DNA of 64,000 nt from Alphaproteobacteria bacterium. Lineage in GTDB: Bacteria > Pseudomonadota > Alphaproteobacteria > UBA828. The notes under the pieces were generated by a model. The model saw nothing but the letters and a program-made list of their open reading frames with translations. It was not told where the DNA came from and searched no databases. The DNA is taken from assembly GCA_965221125.1 (NCBI GenBank), contig CBDCRW010000005.1:700419-764418 (forward strand). The letters run 5' to 3'. Positions 51,252-60,195 of this stretch are shown piece by piece. The position numbers and the translations under genes were made by a program. Within the stretch, counting starts at the first letter, position 1; every line of letters begins with the position of its first letter.

Positions 51252-52704
51252 GATCGTGTCCCGAGGAGTGGTGTAAGAGCGTCGCGCTTTACGCGGCATC
51301 CGGCGGGTAGGGCCGGGTTATTCAGGCTGCCACAGCGGACAGCTTGATCGTGGGATTGTCGCTCAGGGGAGCGATCGATTCCAGCGTCATGTACCTCCTT
51401 CCGACGGTCCATTCGTCGTTCTGCTCGAGCAGCACGGCGCCGACGAGGCGGGTGATGGCGTCCTCGTTGGGGAAGATGCCGACGACGTTGGTGCGTCGCT
51501 TGATCTCGCCGTTGACGCGTTCGAGCGGGTTGGTCGAGTGAAGCTTGACCCGGTGCTCCTTGGGGAAGCTCATGTAGGCGAGGACGTCGTGCTGGGCCTC
51601 GTCCATGAGGGCCGCCAGCTTGGAGGCCTTGGGCCTGAGCTGGTCGGCGATCAGGCGCCACTGGGCGGCAGCGGCCTCGGCATCGTCCTGGGCGAAGGCG
51701 GTGGCGACGAAGGCGGAGACGACGCGCCGGCCCTGCTTGCCGGCATGGGCCAGCAGGTTGCGCATGAAGTGGACGCGGCATCTCTGCCAGGTGGCGCCGA
51801 GGATCCGGGTGGTGGCGGCCTTCAGGCCCTTGTGGTCGTCGGAGATCACCAGCTGCACGCCGCGCAGGCCGCGCCTGGTCAGCGAGCGCAGGAACTCGGT
51901 CCAGAAGGTCTCGGCCTCGGAGGCGCCGATCGCCATGCCGAGGATCTCGCGCCGGCCCTGGTCGTTGACCGCGACGGCCACGGTGACCGCGACCGGGACG
52001 ATGCGCCCGGCCTCGCGCACCTTCACGTAAGTCGCATCCAGCCAGAGATAGGGCCAGTCGCCTTCGAGCGGGCGGTCGAGGAAGCTGCGGATCTTGTCGT
52101 CTATCTCCCCGCAAAGGCGCGAGACCTGGCTCTTCGATATCCCGCTCATGCCCATGGCCTGAACCAGTTCGTCGACCGAGCGGGTCGATACCCCCTGGAT
52201 GTAGGCCTCCTGGATCACCGCCGTGAGCGCCTTCTCCGCCGTCCGTCGGGGCTCCAGGAAGCCGGGGAAGTAGCTCCCCTTCCTGAGCTTCGGAATCTTC
52301 AGGTCGACCGTGCCGGCCCGGGTCTCCCAAGGCCGATCGCGGTAGCCGTTGCGCTGGTTGATCCGCTCCGGCGTCCGCGCGCCATGCTCGGCGCCGGTCA
52401 GGCCCTCGACTTCCAGCTCCATAAGGCGCTGCGCAGAGAAGGCGATCATCTCACGCAGCAGATCGGCGTCAGAGCTCTTCTCCAACAGCGTCCGCAGGGT
52501 AAGCTTGTCATCGGTCATCGTGGTTCTCCTTAGGCTCGGGTCGATTCGGATTCACCCAAACCCTAAACCGGAACCGCGATGGCCACCCCGCTGTGGATAA
52601 CCGGCTTGGCGCCACCAGACTCGAGGGCGGTCGCGGCGCCAAGCCGGTTACCCACAGCTACCGGGGGTAGCGGGAGCTCCTACACCACGTCTGGGGACAC
52701 AACC
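51252..52704 (-). mobile_element. IS256 family element, copy 1 (1453 bp)
   Basis: Imperfect IRs GATCGTGTCCC / GGGGACACAACC; 8-bp TSD CGCGCACC at 51244-51251 and 52705-52712. Confidence 0.95.
51322..52518 (-). CDS. IS256 family transposase
   Basis: [29 protein letters not shown] and [15 protein letters not shown] motifs. Confidence 0.97.
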
Positions 52705-53813
52705 CGCGCACCTGCCCGATGCAGCGAGACCGGACGGTCGAAGTGAGCGGACAATTGCTCGATCAGCCGCCGTTTGCGTCCCCCGATGCGCCGATTCGCA
52801 TATTCGCGGCGCAGCAAGCGCGACAGCCTCCTCACCGCGAAGCCTCCGCCCGCAACGCGGGCAGAGACTGCCTGATCCCCTCCCGTTCCTCCGCCGAGAA
52901 GAACAGGGGCAGATGACCCAACGCCTCCGCTTCGTTGTCGGTCGAGTGAATGGGGTTGTCCTTGGCGCGCGCCCCGGTCTCGCGGTGGAACCCGTCGCGC
53001 CACTCGACCTTGACGAACTGGTTGCGGTTGAAAACGAAGGGATGAACCTCGCGCTCCTCAGCCGTGGTCGGCACCGGCGCCAAGTCGAACACCACCACTG
53101 CGACGCGAGGTCTTCCGCCTCGGCGCCACTTGCCGCCACGCATGTGCCGGGCTTGGGTGAGGCGAGTCCACCAGTCGATCGCCTTCACGGACACGATGTG
53201 GAAGCGCTCTCGCAGGCGTTCGACGAACGCCTCGCTCTTGCCGTGTCTCACCGCCACTTCGCGGATCACGAAGAGGTTCAGCTCCCCCGGATGCCGGTCC
53301 TGCAGTCGAGCGTGGAAGATGGACTTTCGACCGTGGCGGAAGTCGTACTCGATGTAGGCGACAAGGCGCGCCTCGCTGACCGACAGGTCACAGGACTCGA
53401 GGTGACGGTGAAATCCCTCCAGGGTGCAGGGAACGGTGACGCCGTGTTGTTTTCCGGTCTAGCCGGATAGAAGCACGGGTTTTTTTCTCACTTTGATTGG
53501 TTGGTGGATTTCCCGGGATGGTGGCCGAGTGCGGGAAGGACGCTGCCTGCGGCATTTTTTTGATCCTCAGCAGAATCCTCATTGCTGTTGAAGCTGTGGA
53601 GCGGTGGGCGCGAGATCGGCGAGTGTGGTCAGGCGGTGGGCAAGCGCCAGCTTGTCCACGGGCTGTCCACACGGTCCGCAGGACGCCGATCGGTCCGCAG
53701 GACGCGTCCACGGCTCCACAGCTTGGCGGCGGCGGGGAGCGTCCGTAATCTTGGCCTCTCACTGAACGACAAAGAGAGGCCCGGGGGACGGAACTCCCGC
53801 CGGGCCAGGGCCG

Positions 53814-54449
53814 GTGCAGCTTCGCTACGAAACGGGGCTCACCAGCGAGGAATACGTTAAGACCGAGGCGTGGCGCGACGCAAGGCTTGAGCGCTGCCCG
53901 AATCACCCGCACGGCGGATGTTCTGTGGCAAGCCACGGCACCTACGAGCGGAAGACCCCGCCCGGCGCAAGGGTTCCTCGCTGGTATTGCCGTGAGAGCC
54001 ATACGACCATCGGCCTGCTGGCCGACTGTCTGGCGGCGCGGCTGCCGGGCACGCTCGATGCGCTGGAAGCGGTTGTTGTCGTGGCGGAGGAGGCCGGCAG
54101 CCTGGAGGAGGCAGCGGACGAGGTGCGCTGCCCCGAGGACGAGGACGCCATCGAGCTTCCCGGCGCCGTGCGTTGGATCCGCCGCAGGCTGAAGCTTGTG
54201 CACGACGCGCTTGTGCGCGTCATCGGCCTGATCCCCGACCTGCTCGCGGGCTGCGCGCCCACCATGAGCGCGGTGCGCGAGCGTCTGAAGAGCGACAGCG
54301 CGTTGATGGAACTGCGCGGCCTGGTCGCCGGGCAGCTCCGGACGCTACCCGCGCCTCTGGGCTTCCAACCCCACGGCATCGACGTGGGGAATCGCAAACC
54401 GCAGTTCCAACAACGGGCGGGGCCGGACCCGCCGCCGGAGAGTTCGTAG
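53814..54449 (+). CDS. Transposon ORF1: Cys/His Zn-binding plus HTH-like protein of unknown function
   Basis: CPNHPHGGC...HGTYERK...RWYC..SH motif; co-oriented with the transposase; GTG start. Confidence 0.65.
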   Translation: MQLRYETGLTSEEYVKTEAWRDARLERCPNHPHGGCSVASHGTYERKTPPGARVPRWYCRESHTTIGLLADCLAARLPGTLDALEAVVVVAEEAGSLEEAADEVRCPEDEDAIELPGAVRWIRRRLKLVHDALVRVIGLIPDLLAGCAPTMSAVRERLKSDSALMELRGLVAGQLRTLPAPLGFQPHGIDVGNRKPQFQQRAGPDPPPESS

Positions 54450-54494
54450 CGTGACGATCCCGGGGCCAGGGAGTCCCTGAACGAGGATCGCACC

Positions 54495-55823
54495 ATGAAC
54501 AGCTCAGACGACGACCTTCGCCAACAGATCGCGCTCTTCCGATACGACGTCATCGCCGATCTGGTGCATCTGCCCGTGGGTGCACCGGGTGCCGGCGCGA
54601 TGATGCGCGCCAAAGCCGAGAAGACCTACACGATCCCCGGAACCACCAGGACCCGGGTCGCCGCCGAGACCATGCGGCGCTGGATCAAGGACTACCGCTA
54701 CGGCGGCTTCGACGCGCTCTACCCCAAGCCCCGCACCGACCGGGGGAAGCCCCGGCGGCTGCCGCCCGAGGTCGCCGAGCGCCTCATCGCGCTGAAGACC
54801 GAGAACGACGCATTGTCGGTTCGCGCCATCATCCAGAAGGTCAAGGAGGAGGGTATCGACCACCCGCTCGCCTCGTCCACCGTGCACCGCCTCTTCAGCC
54901 GCGAGGGCCTGTTCGACAAGAAGCCGCCCGACGGGGCGGATCGCCGCCGCTTCGCCTTCCGGCATGCCGGCGAGATGTGGATGAGCGACGTCATGCACGG
55001 ACCCAAGGTCCGGCACGGCCGAACCCGGCGCAAGACCTACCTGATCGCCTTCATCGACGACGCCACCCGCGTCATCCCGTTCGCCGCCTTCGCCATGGCG
55101 GAGAACACTGCGGCGTTCCTGCCGGTGTTCAAGGACGCGCTGATCCGGCGCGGCCTCCCGGCCCGCTTGTACGTCGACAACGGAAGCGCCTACCGCTCCC
55201 GTCATCTCTCCCTGGTCTGCGCCAGGCTCGGCGTTGCGTTGATTCACGCAAGGGCGTTCCAGCCAGCGGGAAAGGGTAAGATCGAGCGCTTCTTCCGCAC
55301 CCTCCGGGCCGGCTGGCTCCGCCACCTCGGCGATGACGTCGACAGCCTGGAGGCGCTCAACCGCAGCCTCTGGGCCTGGATCGAGGGGGAGTATCACAAC
55401 AGCCCGCATCGTGGCCTCGACGAGGGGCGCACCCCGCTTGAGCAGTGGGCGCTGGCCTCGGCCGGCGTGCGCTATCCCGACGCCACCATGGACCTCGACG
55501 ATCTGTTCCTCTTCGAGGCCAGGCGCCGTGTCTACAAGGACCGCACCGTTAGTCTGAACGGCCGCGTCTACGAGGTCGACGCCCTCCTGGTGGGTCAGAA
55601 CGTCATCCTGCGCTACGACCCGGCCGCGCCGCCCTCGCGCCCTCTCGACGTGGTCCATGACGGCAAGCCGGCCGGCAAGGCCAGCCCTCTCGACGCCTAC
55701 GCCAATACCGCCGTCAGGCGCACCTACCCGGCCAGGGAGATCGAGGCCGAAGATCCGGCGCCCGAGCCTCCGCCCTCGCCGCTGGCCATGCGCAACCTCA
55801 AGGACAAGAAGGAGGACGAGTGA
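54495..55823 (+). CDS. DDE transposase (rve core with Mu/TnsB-like C-terminus)
   Basis: WMSDVMHG, IDDATR, YVDNGSAY and GKIERFFRT motifs; C-terminal RRVYKDRTVSLNGRVYEV. Confidence 0.93.
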   Translation: MNSSDDDLRQQIALFRYDVIADLVHLPVGAPGAGAMMRAKAEKTYTIPGTTRTRVAAETMRRWIKDYRYGGFDALYPKPRTDRGKPRRLPPEVAERLIALKTENDALSVRAIIQKVKEEGIDHPLASSTVHRLFSREGLFDKKPPDGADRRRFAFRHAGEMWMSDVMHGPKVRHGRTRRKTYLIAFIDDATRVIPFAAFAMAENTAAFLPVFKDALIRRGLPARLYVDNGSAYRSRHLSLVCARLGVALIHARAFQPAGKGKIERFFRTLRAGWLRHLGDDVDSLEALNRSLWAWIEGEYHNSPHRGLDEGRTPLEQWALASAGVRYPDATMDLDDLFLFEARRRVYKDRTVSLNGRVYEVDALLVGQNVILRYDPAAPPSRPLDVVHDGKPAGKASPLDAYANTAVRRTYPAREIEAEDPAPEPPPSPLAMRNLKDKKEDE

Positions 55824-56623
55824 TGTACCTGCGCCACTTCGCCTTCACCCGCCTGCCCTTCGAGACCCCGGCAGAGACCGACGAGCTGTTCGAGTCCAAC
55901 GCGCGCCGCGAGGCCGAGGCCAGGCTCGGCCACCTCATCGACCTGCGCGGCATCGGCCTGCTCACCGGCGAGGTGGGCTCCGGCAAGACCACCGTGTGCC
56001 GGCATCTGACCGCGCAGCTTCATCCAGGCCTCTACCGGGTCCACTACGTCTCGCTGACCACGGGCAACGTGCTCGACATGTACAAGGCGATCGCGTGGGA
56101 GATCGGCCTGCCCATCGAGCGCTCCCGCGCCTCGGCCTATCAGGCCATCCGAAACGAGATCTCCCGCCTCGTCACCGAGGCCAAGCAGCTGCCGGTCCTC
56201 GTCATCGACGAGGCCCATCATCTGCGCAACGACGTCCTTGAGGACCTGCGCCTGCTCACCAACTTCGCCATGGATGCAGAGCAGCGCCTGTGCCTCGTCC
56301 TCGTCGGTCTGACCGAGCTCAGGCGCCGCCTGGCCATGGCCATGCACGAATCCCTCAGCCAGCGCCTCGTCGTCCGCCACCACCTGAGCGGTCTCGACCG
56401 CGACGAGGTCGACGCTTACATCAAGCACCGCCTCAGGCTCGCGGGATGCGAACTGCCGCTGTTCGAAGAGCCCGCCGTCGAGGCCCTGTTCCAGGGCGCG
56501 CGCGGCCTGCCGCGCCAGATCAACCGCATCGCCCACTACGCGCTCTCCGCCGCCGCTCTCGACGAGGCGAGGACCGTCAGTGCCGACCACCTGCAGCACG
56601 CGCTCGAGGAACTGCGGCCATGA
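55823..56623 (+). CDS. ExeA/TnsC-like AAA+ ATPase
   Basis: MYLRHFAFTRLPF, GEVGSGKT, VIDEAHHL and GLPRQIN motifs; overlaps the transposase stop. Confidence 0.92.
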   Translation: MYLRHFAFTRLPFETPAETDELFESNARREAEARLGHLIDLRGIGLLTGEVGSGKTTVCRHLTAQLHPGLYRVHYVSLTTGNVLDMYKAIAWEIGLPIERSRASAYQAIRNEISRLVTEAKQLPVLVIDEAHHLRNDVLEDLRLLTNFAMDAEQRLCLVLVGLTELRRRLAMAMHESLSQRLVVRHHLSGLDRDEVDAYIKHRLRLAGCELPLFEEPAVEALFQGARGLPRQINRIAHYALSAAALDEARTVSADHLQHALEELRP

Positions 56624-57660
56624 CCGGCTTCCCGACCCGCGCCCCGATCGAGCTGGAGGAGCGGCCGCGCGAGCAGCAATGGCTGGTGGACACGCTATGG
56701 GGCGAGCAGGCCGTCGGCATCGTCGGCGGCGAGCCGAAGTGCGGCAAGTCCATCCTGGCGCTGGACCTCGCGGTCGCAGTCGCCGCCGGCGTCCCATGCC
56801 TGCGGCACTTCGCCCCGGCCCGGCCTGGCCCGGTCCTGCTGTTCGCCGCAGAAGACGCCGGCCACCTCGTGCGCAAGCGCCTGCAGGGGATCGCCCGCGC
56901 CGCAGGCGCCCGCTTCGAGACCCTCGACATCGCCGTCATCGACGTGCCCACACTGCGCCTCGACCATCTCGACGACCGCCGCCGCCTGCAGCAGACCGTG
57001 GAGCGCATCGCACCGCGCCTCGTGGTCCTCGACCCCCTGGTCCGCCTGCACGGCGTGGACGAGAACACGGTTGCGGACGTCGCCCCGATCCTCGGCTTCC
57101 TGCGCGACCTGCAACGCCGCTTCGAGACCGCCGTCCTCCTCGTCCACCACGCCCGCAAGAGCGGGGCCACGAGGCCGGGGCAGGCCCTGCGGGGCAGCAG
57201 TGAGCTGCACGCCTGGGGGGACTCGAACCTCTACCTGCGCCGCCGGGACCGGCAGACCCTCATGACCGTCGAGCATCGCGCCGCACGCGGTCTCGACGAC
57301 ATCGAGATCGAGCTCAAGGAAGACGGAGAGGAGCCCTCCTTCCGGCTGCGCCAGCCGCCCACGGCCGGCGGCGGGGCGCCTCAGCCCGAAACACCCGAAT
57401 GCCGCGTTCTCAAGGCGCTCGCCGACGCCGGGGCGCCGCTCTCGCAACGCCAGATCCGGGAACGCGCCGCGACCCGGCACAAGACCGTCGGCGTAATCTT
57501 GCAAAAGCTCGTCCAGGAGGGTCGCGTCGCGCGCAACGCCGAGGGCGGCTACAGCGTCGTCGCAGGCGCAGCGGACAAGCGGGCGGCGGCCGCCGCCGCC
57601 AACGGCAGCAGTCGGCCGCAGGCCCCGCGGTTCCCGGAGCCCGGTTCCGCCAACGCCTAG
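56620..57660 (+). CDS. RecA-fold RepA-like (AAA_25) helicase/ATPase with C-terminal winged helix
   Basis: WLVDTL, GEPKCGKS, AAED, VVLDPL, LVHHARK and LRGSS motifs; wHTH-like LSQRQIRE...LQKLVQEG; ATGA overlap with the upstream gene. Confidence 0.85.
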   Translation: MTGFPTRAPIELEERPREQQWLVDTLWGEQAVGIVGGEPKCGKSILALDLAVAVAAGVPCLRHFAPARPGPVLLFAAEDAGHLVRKRLQGIARAAGARFETLDIAVIDVPTLRLDHLDDRRRLQQTVERIAPRLVVLDPLVRLHGVDENTVADVAPILGFLRDLQRRFETAVLLVHHARKSGATRPGQALRGSSELHAWGDSNLYLRRRDRQTLMTVEHRAARGLDDIEIELKEDGEEPSFRLRQPPTAGGGAPQPETPECRVLKALADAGAPLSQRQIRERAATRHKTVGVILQKLVQEGRVARNAEGGYSVVAGAADKRAAAAAANGSSRPQAPRFPEPGSANA

Positions 57661-57985
57661 GGGTTCGAGCCGGAACCGCCGTCGGGAACCACCCTTCCCC
57701 AACGGTCCGGAAGGCGCTGCGCCTCCACCGGGATACTACGTCAGGTGAGCGGCCAGTCCGTGGCCGGAAGCTTGCTTCAGGCCATGGCAGCACTTCGTCG
57801 TGTGGACGGTGGCGAGTCACCCGAAGGGCCGAAGCGAAGCGCAGGAGCGGCGCAGCCGCTTGACGCGCCGACGGCCGCGCGACACCTCGTCAGCTCTCCT
57901 CAAGCACCAGTCCAAACCTCAATCAGACAGCGACCCCGGACCGCCCGCAGAGACCATGAGCTCCTACGCTTCGATCCGGAAAAGA

Positions 57986-59438
57986 GGTTGTGTCCCCAGA
58001 CGTGGTGTAGGAGCTCCCGCTACCCCCGGTAGCTGTGGGTAACCGGCTTGGCGCCGCGACCGCCCTCGAGTCTGGTGGCGCCAAGCCGGTTATCCACAGC
58101 GGGGTGGCCATCGCGGTTCCGGTTTAGGGTTTGGGTGAATCCGAATCGACCCGAGCCTAAGGAGAACCACGATGACCGATGACAAGCTTACCCTGCGGAC
58201 GCTGTTGGAGAAGAGCTCTGACGCCGATCTGCTGCGTGAGATGATCGCCTTCTCTGCGCAGCGCCTTATGGAGCTGGAAGTCGAGGGCCTGACCGGCGCC
58301 GAGCATGGCGCGCGGACGCCGGAGCGGATCAACCAGCGCAACGGCTACCGCGATCGGCCTTGGGAGACCCGGGCCGGCACGGTCGACCTGAAGATTCCGA
58401 AGCTCAGGAAGGGGAGCTACTTCCCCGGCTTCCTGGAGCCCCGACGGACGGCGGAGAAGGCGCTCACGGCGGTGATCCAGGAGGCCTACATCCAGGGGGT
58501 ATCGACCCGCTCGGTCGACGAACTGGTTCAGGCCATGGGCATGAGCGGGATATCGAAGAGCCAGGTCTCGCGCCTTTGCGGGGAGATAGACGACAAGATC
58601 CGCAGCTTCCTCGACCGCCCGCTCGAAGGCGACTGGCCCTATCTCTGGCTGGATGCGACTTACGTGAAGGTGCGCGAGGCCGGGCGCATCGTCCCGGTCG
58701 CGGTCACCGTGGCCGTCGCGGTCAACGACCAGGGCCGGCGCGAGATCCTCGGCATGGCGATCGGCGCCTCCGAGGCCGAGACCTTCTGGACCGAGTTCCT
58801 GCGCTCGCTGACCAGGCGCGGCCTGCGCGGCGTGCAGCTGGTGATCTCCGACGACCACAAGGGCCTGAAGGCCGCCACCACCCGGATCCTCGGCGCCACC
58901 TGGCAGAGATGCCGCGTCCACTTCATGCGCAACCTGCTGGCCCATGCCGGCAAGCAGGGCCGGCGCGTCGTCTCCGCCTTCGTCGCCACCGCCTTCGCCC
59001 AGGACGATGCCGAGGCCGCTGCCGCCCAGTGGCGCCTGATCGCCGACCAGCTCAGGCCCAAGGCCTCCAAGCTGGCGGCCCTCATGGACGAGGCCCAGCA
59101 CGACGTCCTCGCCTACATGAGCTTCCCCAAGGAGCACCGGGTCAAGCTTCACTCGACCAACCCGCTCGAACGCGTCAACGGCGAGATCAAGCGACGCACC
59201 AACGTCGTCGGCATCTTCCCCAACGAGGACGCCATCACCCGCCTCGTCGGCGCCGTGCTGCTCGAGCAGAACGACGAATGGACCGTCGGAAGGAGGTACA
59301 TGACGCTGGAATCGATCGCTCCCCTGAGCGACAATCCCACGATCAAGCTGTCCGCTGTGGCAGCCTGAATAACCCGGCCCTACCCGCCGGATGCCGCGTA
59401 AAGCGCGACGCTCTTACACCACTCCTCGGGACACGATC
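57986..59438 (+). mobile_element. IS256 family element, copy 2 (inverted relative to copy 1)
   Basis: Same ends and identical protein; own 8-bp TSD GGAAAAGA at 57978-57985 and 59439-59446. Confidence 0.95.
58172..59368 (+). CDS. IS256 family transposase
   Basis: Translation identical to 51322-52518. Confidence 0.97.
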
Positions 59439-60195
59439 GGAAAAGACCGAGCAATCTGGGAAATCAGGGCAGCGATCACGTCAAATAATCTGGGAGATTC
59501 GGCGTCAAATAACGTGCGAAACAACACGCCGCACTCCCTCTGAAGCGCCGCGAGACGCTCGGTGTTCGGGTTCTCCACGGAGTGCGCTGGATCGCTGACA
59601 TGAACACCGGACTGCAGGCTCTTGTGATAGGCCATGTGATAGAGAAGCGCGTTCAGCTCGTCCAGCGGCTGCGGCATCCAGATGCCCGCGACCAGGCGAC
59701 GCTGAGCCAGAACTTGCCGGCCCAACCGTTCCGGCAGGTGGGGGAACCCGCGGTAGTCGCTCCCGTGCAGCCCCCTGATGCCGTAGCAATCGAACTTGAG
59801 GCCCGAGCGTCTGCCCTGGAACGCCGCTCTGAGAGCGGTGATTGCGCGGTCGTCGATCAGCAGGTCCAGTTCCTTCACCCGTGCGTCGAGCACACGGTGA
59901 CCGCCCCTCAAGACGACATGCTCCACCCGATTCTGCTCGAGCCAGGCGAAGAACTCCCGGGGCGGTGCGCGCAGAGACACCGGCCTAGCGCAGGCTGACC
60001 CGCAGATCGCTGCGGAGAACGGGCGCCCGCTCCCGCATCGAGCACACAGGAAAGCCCCCCTCGAATTCCGGCATCCTCATCAAGAGCCTCGTCGTGGCGT
60101 TGCCGGCCGGCCGCGCAAACCACGACCGGCGCGACCGCGCACTTCCAGTGTCTGCCGAACAGGCGACGCCGGCGAGGAAGCCGTGCCGGCGGCAG

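Follow-up and report, generated by a model that had tools for sequence, protein, structure and literature searches.

Structure of the transposon and its copies in the host genome

The window analyzed here, a stretch of 64,000 nucleotides from an alphaproteobacterial genome (contig CBDCRW010000005.1), contained a transposon that appears to be a distant member of the kind represented by Tn6049. It extended from position 53445, the start of its terminal TGTTGTTT, to position 59526, the end of its terminal AAACAACA, and was flanked by two copies of the 5-bp target-site duplication CGCCG (53440–53444 and 59527–59531); all features within it are given on the plus strand. The left end (53445–53813) carried the terminal TGTTGTTT and subterminal repeats at offsets of approximately 6, 40 and 64, and its G+C content was lower (56% in the first 200 bp). 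It was followed by four co-oriented genes, namely, an open reading frame designated ORF1 (53814–54449; 211 aa), which presumably encodes a zinc-ribbon protein, a divergent member of DUF6431; a DDE transposase gene (54495–55823; 442 aa); a gene for an AAA_22 (ExeA/GspA-like) ATPase (55820–56623; 267 aa); and a gene for a RepA-like AAA_25 ATPase with a C-terminal winged helix (56620–57660; 346 aa), referred to below as the helicase. The last three genes overlapped (GTGATG at the transposase stop and ATPase start, ATGA at the ATPase stop and helicase start). Downstream, a conserved non-coding segment of approximately 226 bp with predicted hairpins (57661–57886), forming the 3′ part of the helicase cassette, preceded the right-end region (57887–57985). 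The latter was interrupted by an insertion sequence (IS) of the IS256 family (57986–59438; 1453 bp, 398-aa transposase), which is foreign to the transposon, lies 80 bp from its right end and is bordered by its own 8-bp duplication GGAAAAGA (57978–57985 and 59439–59446). The remaining stretch (59439–59526) comprised the second copy of this duplication, followed by the final 80 bp of the transposon, in which three subterminal repeats and the terminal AAACAACA are located. The length of the transposon without the IS256-family element was 4621 bp.

The subterminal motif TYTCBCASDTT occurred four times in the window, always within 80 bp of the two ends, a count that is circular because the motif was derived from these end sites; shuffled sequences gave 0.32 matches on average, and none of 100 shuffles reached four. 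In six of the seven related elements, all of them outside the motif derivation, it recurred at end offsets of 6, 40 and 64; the loci concerned contained a single further match. Each end thus carries approximately three repeats, as would be expected if the transposase binds at several sites. Promoter and terminator scans revealed nothing above shuffles, and an Rfam scan of the element gave one chance-level match only (E = 0.87).

The host genome (4.58 Mb, 7 contigs, 69% G+C) contained 20 copies of the transposon, 17 of which were uninterrupted, 4621 bp long and mutually identical, while each of the other three had acquired an IS256 insertion of its own (element positions 179, 4541 and 4564). 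The 5-bp duplications were perfect in 15 of the 20 copies, were 4 bp long in two and had one mismatch in five in one. The remaining two copies formed an inverted pair on contig C4 (671960–676580, minus strand, and 716887–721507, plus strand; approximately 40 kb apart) with reciprocal flanks, CGGGG/CCCTC and CCCTC/CGGGG, so the segment of approximately 40 kb between them has been inverted, either by homologous recombination between inverted copies or by one-step intramolecular replicative transposition, both of which fit the flanks. The pattern of duplications and copies is far beyond chance, and the element was confirmed as a real, recently active transposon, which, judging by its copies and the inversion, is reshaping the host genome now. 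The closest pair of copies was approximately 19 kb apart, a distance that is uninformative on target immunity given 20 copies in 4.58 Mb (an estimate).

A weak CCNGG-like preference was found in the duplicated five bases of 38 insertion sites, of which the host genome contributed 20 and genome G001 (an alphaproteobacterial bin of 5.8 Mb, loci L011–L016) the other 18: C in 23 and 25 of the 38 at the first and second positions, G or A at the third, G in 19 at the fourth, and G or C at the fifth. No flank was shared among the 38 sites, and the orientation of the 20 host copies had no relation to GC skew.

The window copy split a host reading frame of approximately 350 codons on the minus strand (52832–53443 and 59527–59980); the reading frames of the two fragments agree, and a Pfam search with both assigned no family. 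The IS256-family element was present in 14 identical copies in the genome. Three of these lay inside the transposon, none of them more than 180 bp from an end of it, where the G+C content is 56–57% against 69% overall; a second identical copy in the window (approximately 51252–52704, minus strand) had a different duplication.

Core genes and mobile relatives

The transposase contained HTH_32, rve and Mu-transpos_C domains (Pfam), and residues D165, D228 and E264 were invariant among eight transposases of relatives. Its best NCBIfam model was IS481 (201.9 bits, below the cut-off of 224); it also matched phrog_310, a Mu-type phage transposase family (E = 3e-49), and, weakly, a V-K TnsB model (E = 2.6e-7). 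The ATPase, with AAA_22 and TIGR03015 ExeA-like domains and Walker motifs invariant across the compared sequences, matched phrog_296, "DNA transposition protein" (E = 1.4e-29), and gave weak matches to TniB (E = 2.9e-4; 20.8 bits against a Pfam cut-off of 22.4) and to a V-K TnsC model (E = 9.5e-4). None of the four proteins matched TnsA, TniQ, resolvase or Cas families in Pfam or NCBIfam. The IS481 family consists of single-gene insertion sequences of approximately 1 kb; the score below the cut-off and the four genes in 4621 bp do not fit this family, nor do the lack of TniQ and resolvase and the TniB match below its cut-off fit the Tn5053/Tn402 family. The initial annotation, made from the sequence, had described a compact transposon of about 4.6 kb with repeated subterminal motifs, four co-oriented genes of which the last three are coupled, a transposase and AAA+ ATPase pair of the Mu/Tn7/IS21 kind, and no TnsA, TniQ, resolvase or Cas gene. 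The ends with their duplication and the 20 genome copies, the length, the motif sites in the window and their recurrence in relatives, the gene overlaps, the domain matches and the family searches all agree with this description.

The family survey drew on 30 genome loci collected with ORF1 as the query and on 80 metagenome loci, the best of the 492 in which the transposase aligned. With the window included, 99 loci had a transposase that was intact and near full length and were scored; 14 of them had no room upstream for ORF1. The conserved core consisted of ORF1, the transposase and the AAA_22 ATPase, and in several genomes such three-gene elements were bounded by TGTTGT ends with 5-bp duplications. 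The helicase gene came directly after that of the ATPase in 15 loci (10 distinct sequences) and was absent from 67 of the 82 scorable loci, 17 loci being unscorable. Helicase-free elements are complete and mobile, as in L017 (3852 bp, duplication ACGTG, two copies in the genome), in L036 and L037 (3622 bp, duplications GCAAC and CCAAC, two copies) and in L029–L032 (4178 bp, duplications of 4 or 5 bp, eight copies). The recorded hosts were Alphaproteobacteria, Gammaproteobacteria, Acidimicrobiales, Acidobacteria and Spirochaetia, these being metagenome bins whose assignments may be wrong. Distant transposase homologues (35–40% identity) on plasmids of Cupriavidus necator, Streptomyces and Geobacillus had the same gene order, with the first gene annotated as DUF6431. 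Literature searches, in which the RIT and Tn6049 literature was covered in part, yielded no description of the transposon family beyond Tn6049.

A RIT element, with three tyrosine recombinases, was found inside the transposase gene of the transposon in L033 (8365–11646), L034 and L035 (genome G004). All four copies in this genome appeared to be interrupted, yet two of them occupied different sites and had 5-bp duplications of their own (CCACT and CTCCC); the two transposase fragments in L033 overlapped by approximately 80 residues. A RIT in the corresponding gene has also been reported for a relative of Tn6049 from Acidithiobacillus.

ORF1, which was located upstream of the transposase gene in all 85 loci with room for it, is a core gene of the family and not an add-on. 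It had more than 1297 homologues, all unnamed, and its Cys/His zinc-ribbon pattern (C28, H31, C36, H41 and C59) was invariant in the 26 sequences sampled. Because its profile matched three DUF6431 proteins (hhalign probability 93.6%, E = 2e-7) and 28 of its 30 protein-atlas neighbours were clusters carrying DUF6431, ORF1 most probably encodes a divergent DUF6431 zinc-ribbon protein. A Pfam-type domain scan detected no helix-turn-helix (HTH) in the window's ORF1; transposase-type HTH domains were present in two of the three distant DUF6431 relatives scanned. Literature searches on DUF6431, by titles and abstracts, returned nothing on transposition.

In RIT elements on pMLa, pRetMIM1e and pMAQU02, the gene that comes first within the 34-bp terminal inverted repeats was a homologue of ORF1 (43–49% identical), and an ORF1/DUF6431-like first gene occurred in RIT loci L039–L042, which comprise these three plasmids and a Cupriavidus plasmid (inside the terminal repeats, for example, in L040, 5867–9988, and L042, 5862–9991). 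The pMLa and pRetMIM1e elements had 4131 bp in common, with the ORF1-like gene and ritABC between the two arms of the perfect 34-bp inverted repeat that bounds this stretch. Three of the four records are annotated; in these, the ORF1-like gene was unannotated or an antisense ORF was annotated instead; L041 carried no annotation there. RIT elements, described in the available parts of PMC10214605 and PMC3414803 as three coding regions with 34-bp repeats, thus carry an ORF1-family gene as an unannotated fourth gene. In two further genomes, an ORF1 homologue (55–60% identical) was followed by an unknown 209-aa ORF and then by a large serine recombinase gene (L027, 7001–11866; L028, 2784–5531); in L027, two ParB/RepB-like proteins came after the recombinase. 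Since the ORF1 family is used with three recombinase chemistries, it is improbable that ORF1 serves the AAA+ ATPase as an adaptor, and its homologues in tyrosine- and serine-recombinase elements, which have no AAA+ partner, speak against target selection of the Tn7 type. These contexts would be explained most economically, and most likely, by a protein that binds DNA in a regulatory or end-binding role.

The helicase cassette and the small gene in the fourth slot

The helicase contained an AAA_25 domain (E = 9e-37) and a weak MarR-type winged helix (E = 2.5e-5, below the Pfam cut-off), and its residues 32–196 matched RSF1010 RepA (PDB 1g8y; phmmer E = 9.6e-10). Its Walker motifs were invariant in 15 sequences. 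The structure model had a pLDDT of 53.5 overall, and only the winged helix (residues 259–313; three helices and two strands) reached approximately 85; the predicted complex of the ATPase and the helicase scored 0.00, which counts neither for nor against binding. No PADLOC defence model matched the helicase or ORF1. The helicase family comprised more than 7880 proteins at E ≤ 1e-10, with the best 120 clusters all at least 69% identical, and a homologue (44% identity) was found in two of 400 other genomes sampled from the host's phylum. One protein, P0127 (597 aa; one sequence on one contig), was a fusion of the AAA_22 ATPase and the helicase through a change of frame close to where the ATPase gene ends, which may be a sequencing error; in the window, too, the helicase frame is open for approximately 110 codons upstream of its ATG (ORF 56290–57660).

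In a FastTree phylogeny of 86 distinct transposases, all 10 helicase carriers fell into one 13-row clade with 100% local support, which further contained one unscorable locus and two loci that do not carry the helicase (L010 and L067); the tree requires three changes or more. The helicase is best described as accessory and outside the conserved machinery.

Genome G001 contained approximately 30 copies of the four-gene element and, in addition, approximately 34 copies of a second, helicase-bearing Tn6049-like transposon of approximately 4.42 kb (e.g., L059, 2883–7302) with TGAG...CTCA ends, 5-bp duplications and a first ORF that resembles that of Tn6049. The transposase and ATPase of this second transposon were 31% and 27% identical to those of the window, respectively, whereas its last gene encoded the same helicase (approximately 78% protein identity), again overlapping the ATPase stop. 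DNA similarity between the two transposons was confined to the helicase gene and approximately 226 bp downstream (77–80% over approximately 1.26 kb), a pattern that points to a 1.26-kb cassette travelling between two distant Tn6049-like transposons. The downstream segment was conserved in five elements, and RNAalifold predicts hairpins in it; with a compensatory change in one of 43 pairs (five sequences), the RNA or DNA structure is a prediction only. Within this segment (window 57735–57886), a 9-bp perfect stem, CCATGGCCG...CGGCCATGG, was present in relatives, while the window copy had an A-to-G change that keeps the pairing only as G-U in the plus-strand RNA. The helicase-bearing populations were the largest counted (20, approximately 30 and approximately 34 copies against 2–8), an anecdotal comparison since two of these three populations come from a single host.

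Relatives that lack the helicase have a small gene that begins at the stop codon of the ATPase gene. A filter requiring 45–110 aa and phenylalanine as the last residue detected it in 51 of the 67 helicase-free loci (48 distinct proteins), a count that this filter makes partly circular. The acidic tails ended in ..PF in 42 of the 48 distinct proteins, Qx[DSAHPE]L[FWL] was present in 33, Q[LPSHRQ]DLF in 24 and exact QLDLF in 13; in excerpts of PMC11139829, QLDLF is given as the consensus and the strongest beta-clamp-binding peptide. Thirteen of the 16 loci that failed the filter were examined: three had shorter variants ending in ..DFWD, ..DLRD and ..DLWD, and L082, L098 and L101 had larger proteins of 100–125 aa whose last five residues are QLALF or QLPLF. 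A similar small acidic protein, with no clear motif, is encoded by Tn6049 and by the C. necator element. Inside six helicase-bearing sequences (five elements of the window family and the second transposon), no small gene was found, and a weak match in L066 lay in the flank, outside the element. In two lineages, the helicase thus occupies the position that is taken in relatives by a small protein bearing a beta-clamp-binding consensus.

L010 and L067, which lie within the helicase clade without carrying the helicase, keep the small gene (QLPLF and QLALF), so recombinational swapping of the right-hand module accounts for the changes on the tree better than simple loss does. The fourth slot may be regarded as a swappable, accessory module, and its link to replication is plausible. 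In L029 (9794–10920; also in L030–L032), approximately 1.1 kb separated the ATPase gene from the right end, compared with 400–490 bp in others; no helicase and no small clamp-motif gene was found in this region, and its ORFs had no Pfam match.

These results change several statements of the initial annotation. Of the four genes it listed, three form the core; the helicase was present in 15 of the 82 scorable loci, and its absence from most relatives is an outcome that the annotation itself had named as refuting. Its proposal that ORF1 and the helicase jointly form a non-canonical targeting or replication module is not supported, given a helicase missing from most loci and an ORF1 that is a core gene common to other recombinase elements; the replication link survives as a plausible one, through the clamp-motif small gene in the helicase slot, in the form of a swappable accessory module. 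As to targeting, the weak CCNGG-like preference is all that emerged from the insertion sites. Of the description of ORF1 as a zinc and HTH protein, the zinc ribbon stands, while the HTH was seen only in the distant DUF6431 relatives. The element had also been put forward as an undescribed system; its architecture matches the named Tn6049, whose gene roles are not known, so that the second refuting outcome, a match to a described family with known gene roles, applies by half.

Proposed mechanism and comparison with known systems

The explanation we consider best, and hold with good confidence, is that of an active, non-composite transposon of the Tn6049 kind with a three-gene core, in which an accessory helicase in the fourth slot would couple transposition to replication. 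By analogy with Mu, Tn7, Tn552 and IS21, the transposase would bind approximately three repeats in each end, and the MuB-like AAA_22 ATPase would capture and license the target DNA. The 3′ ends would then be joined to target DNA cut with a 5-bp stagger, with a weak preference for approximately CCNGG. Movement would probably be replicative because there is no TnsA-like second nuclease, and the reciprocal flanks of the C4 pair are the expected trace of intramolecular replicative inversion. ORF1 most likely binds DNA as a regulator or an end-binding accessory factor rather than as a target selector, and both versions of the fourth slot may couple the strand-transfer product to DNA replication. 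Our verdict is that the helicase is neither conserved machinery nor random cargo but a mobile cassette.

A bolder combination of these ideas, which we regard as rather improbable when taken as a whole, would treat the fourth slot as an interchangeable replisome-coupling position. In one version, that of most lineages, a small QLDLF adaptor would recruit the beta clamp to the strand-transfer intermediate; in the other, present in the lineage of the window's element and independently in a second one, a self-loading RepA-like helicase would bind the 226-bp segment or the transposition fork, start replicative transposition without the host restart machinery and allow bursts of 20–34 identical copies. 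DUF6431 would then be the universal first-gene regulator or end-binding factor of DDE, RIT and serine-recombinase elements.

Several observations weigh against the preferred explanation. The roles of all members of the family are inferred, and the assignment to the Tn6049 kind rests on architecture since the sequence identities are low and ORF1 has no detectable homology to the first ORF of Tn6049 (hhalign probability 0.2%). ORF1 itself matched no Pfam or NCBIfam family, DUF6431 (PF20020) included; its AlphaFold2 model (26 sequences) had a pLDDT of 65, with approximately 55 in the N-terminal zinc part, and a Foldseek search of this model against PDB gave nothing at E ≤ 0.001, the best match being MqsA (E = 0.18). 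The C4 pair is explained equally well by homologous recombination between two independent inverted copies. As regards the fourth slot, the filter for the small gene selected for one of the features counted, and a subset of the small-protein tails has no recognisable clamp motif (e.g., ...RQSPPSQPTDPPF). The transposase tree was built with FastTree and rooted at the midpoint, and metagenome contigs and binned genomes may be chimeric.

The main competing explanation takes the helicase as plain cargo, that is, a stray replication gene of a plasmid or an integrative element, or another passenger, with no role in the transposon. Its absence from 67 of 82 scorable relatives, the multi-copy helicase-free elements that transpose with clean duplications, the plasmid helicase that is its nearest solved relative and the approximately 0.65 kb of other, unassigned sequence present there in the L029-type relative all fit such an origin. 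Against it stand the position of the cassette, directly after the ATPase gene with overlapping stop and start codons, in two lineages whose transposases are only 31% identical, and the replacement of a conserved small gene instead of an addition to it; the strong conservation of the helicase (at least 69% identity among the best 120 clusters), the lack of a PADLOC match and, anecdotally, the size of the helicase-bearing populations also speak against it, and we therefore regard plain cargo as unlikely, albeit less so than the combined model above. Least probable of all, in our estimation, is a Tn7-like pathway in which ORF1 and the helicase select the target in place of TniQ, TnsD or TnsE. The element does resemble Tn7 in its ends and the repeated sites within them, in its 5-bp duplication and in the pairing of transposase and ATPase, and TniQ, termed a "Zn-finger protein", and TnsD are zinc-ribbon proteins, as ORF1 appears to be. 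Yet the 38 sites in two genomes revealed only the weak preference in the duplication and no common flank, the orientation of copies was independent of GC skew, ORF1 gave no TniQ match even at E up to 10, its homologues occur in RIT elements and beside serine recombinases that have no AAA+ partner, and the helicase is missing from most relatives.

A reading of ORF1 that is compatible with the preferred explanation of the whole element compares it with InsA of IS1, i.e., a repressor or end-binding regulator with a zinc ribbon and a helical DNA-binding part, which would bind the left end or promoter of the element that encodes it; we hold this reading tentatively, at slightly less than an even chance. 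ORF1 invariably comes first in the gene order, next to the left end, and its RIT homologue takes the corresponding place inside the 34-bp inverted repeats; HTH domains of the transposase type occur in two of the three distant relatives scanned, and use with three unrelated recombinase chemistries fits a role at the DNA or regulatory level. Against this stand the lack of a detected HTH in the window's ORF1, a fold search whose best match, the zinc-ribbon/HTH protein MqsA, was not significant, and the fact that no binding site of ORF1 was identified.

Transposons that combine a DDE transposase with an AAA+ regulator (Mu, Tn7, CRISPR-associated transposons (CASTs) and IS21) are the best understood and most engineered, whereas the kind with DUF6431, transposase and ATPase, which occurs in Proteobacteria, Actinomycetota, Bacillota and many metagenomes, is little studied. 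Knowledge of the hand-over of strand-transfer products to replication comes mainly from Mu and from the TnsE pathway of Tn7; a slot that alternates between a clamp-motif protein and a replicative-type helicase offers a way to ask how these products reach replication. One zinc-ribbon family in DDE, tyrosine-recombinase and serine-recombinase elements is likewise a lead on a common accessory function.

Among known systems, the closest is Tn6049 of Cupriavidus metallidurans CH34, which has a length of 3.5 kb and 12 copies, each with a "gspA" ATPase gene (PMC2864759, in the part available). The pMOL28 copy is 3517 bp long, with TGT...ACA ends and TATGG on both sides, and contains a Cys-rich 181-aa ORF, a DDE transposase, an AAA_22 ATPase and a small ORF; excerpts of PMC4739549 give 12-bp inverted repeats, TGTGCATAAGCA, and a 4-bp repeat in another copy. 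Tn6049 and the window's element thus have in common a small Cys-rich ORF, an IS481-type DDE transposase and an AAA_22 "gspA" ATPase in overlapping frames, TGT...ACA ends, a duplication of 4–5 bp and multiple copies, and both families have RIT elements in the transposase gene (excerpts of PMC3414803; here L033–L035). The transposases were 26% identical (E = 9e-25) and the ATPases 28% (E = 6e-15). Unlike the window's element, Tn6049 has no helicase, carries a small ORF after the ATPase gene and is 3.5 kb long instead of 4.6 kb. On balance, the window's element would be a distant member of the Tn6049 kind and not a new kind of system.

With Tn7, Tn5053/Tn402, Tn552, Mu and IS21, the element shares a transposase that combines an RNase-H core with a C-terminal domain of the Mu type and has an ATPase as its partner, as well as a 5-bp duplication and multiple transposase sites in each end; its TGT ends are similar to the Tn402 repeat TGTCGTTTT... 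given in the accessible part of PMC4739549. It differs from this group in having no TnsA, TniQ/TnsD/TnsE or resolvase and no site-specific target, in a much shorter transposase (442 aa) that scores best with IS481 models and in an AAA_22/ExeA-like ATPase. The helicase resembles RSF1010 RepA in its RecA-fold AAA_25 core, Walker A and B motifs and HHxxK motif, whereas it has an extra C-terminal winged helix and is encoded by a transposon, with no RepB primase, RepC initiator or recognisable origin. RIT elements have the ORF1 family in common with the window and move by three tyrosine recombinases instead. Finally, the Tn7 TnsE pathway is characterized by beta-clamp-directed targeting. The small protein of the relatives is unrelated to TnsE and tiny (63–125 aa), and its gene is missing from the window's element; the QLDLF tail of the helicase-free relatives nevertheless suggests replisome coupling.

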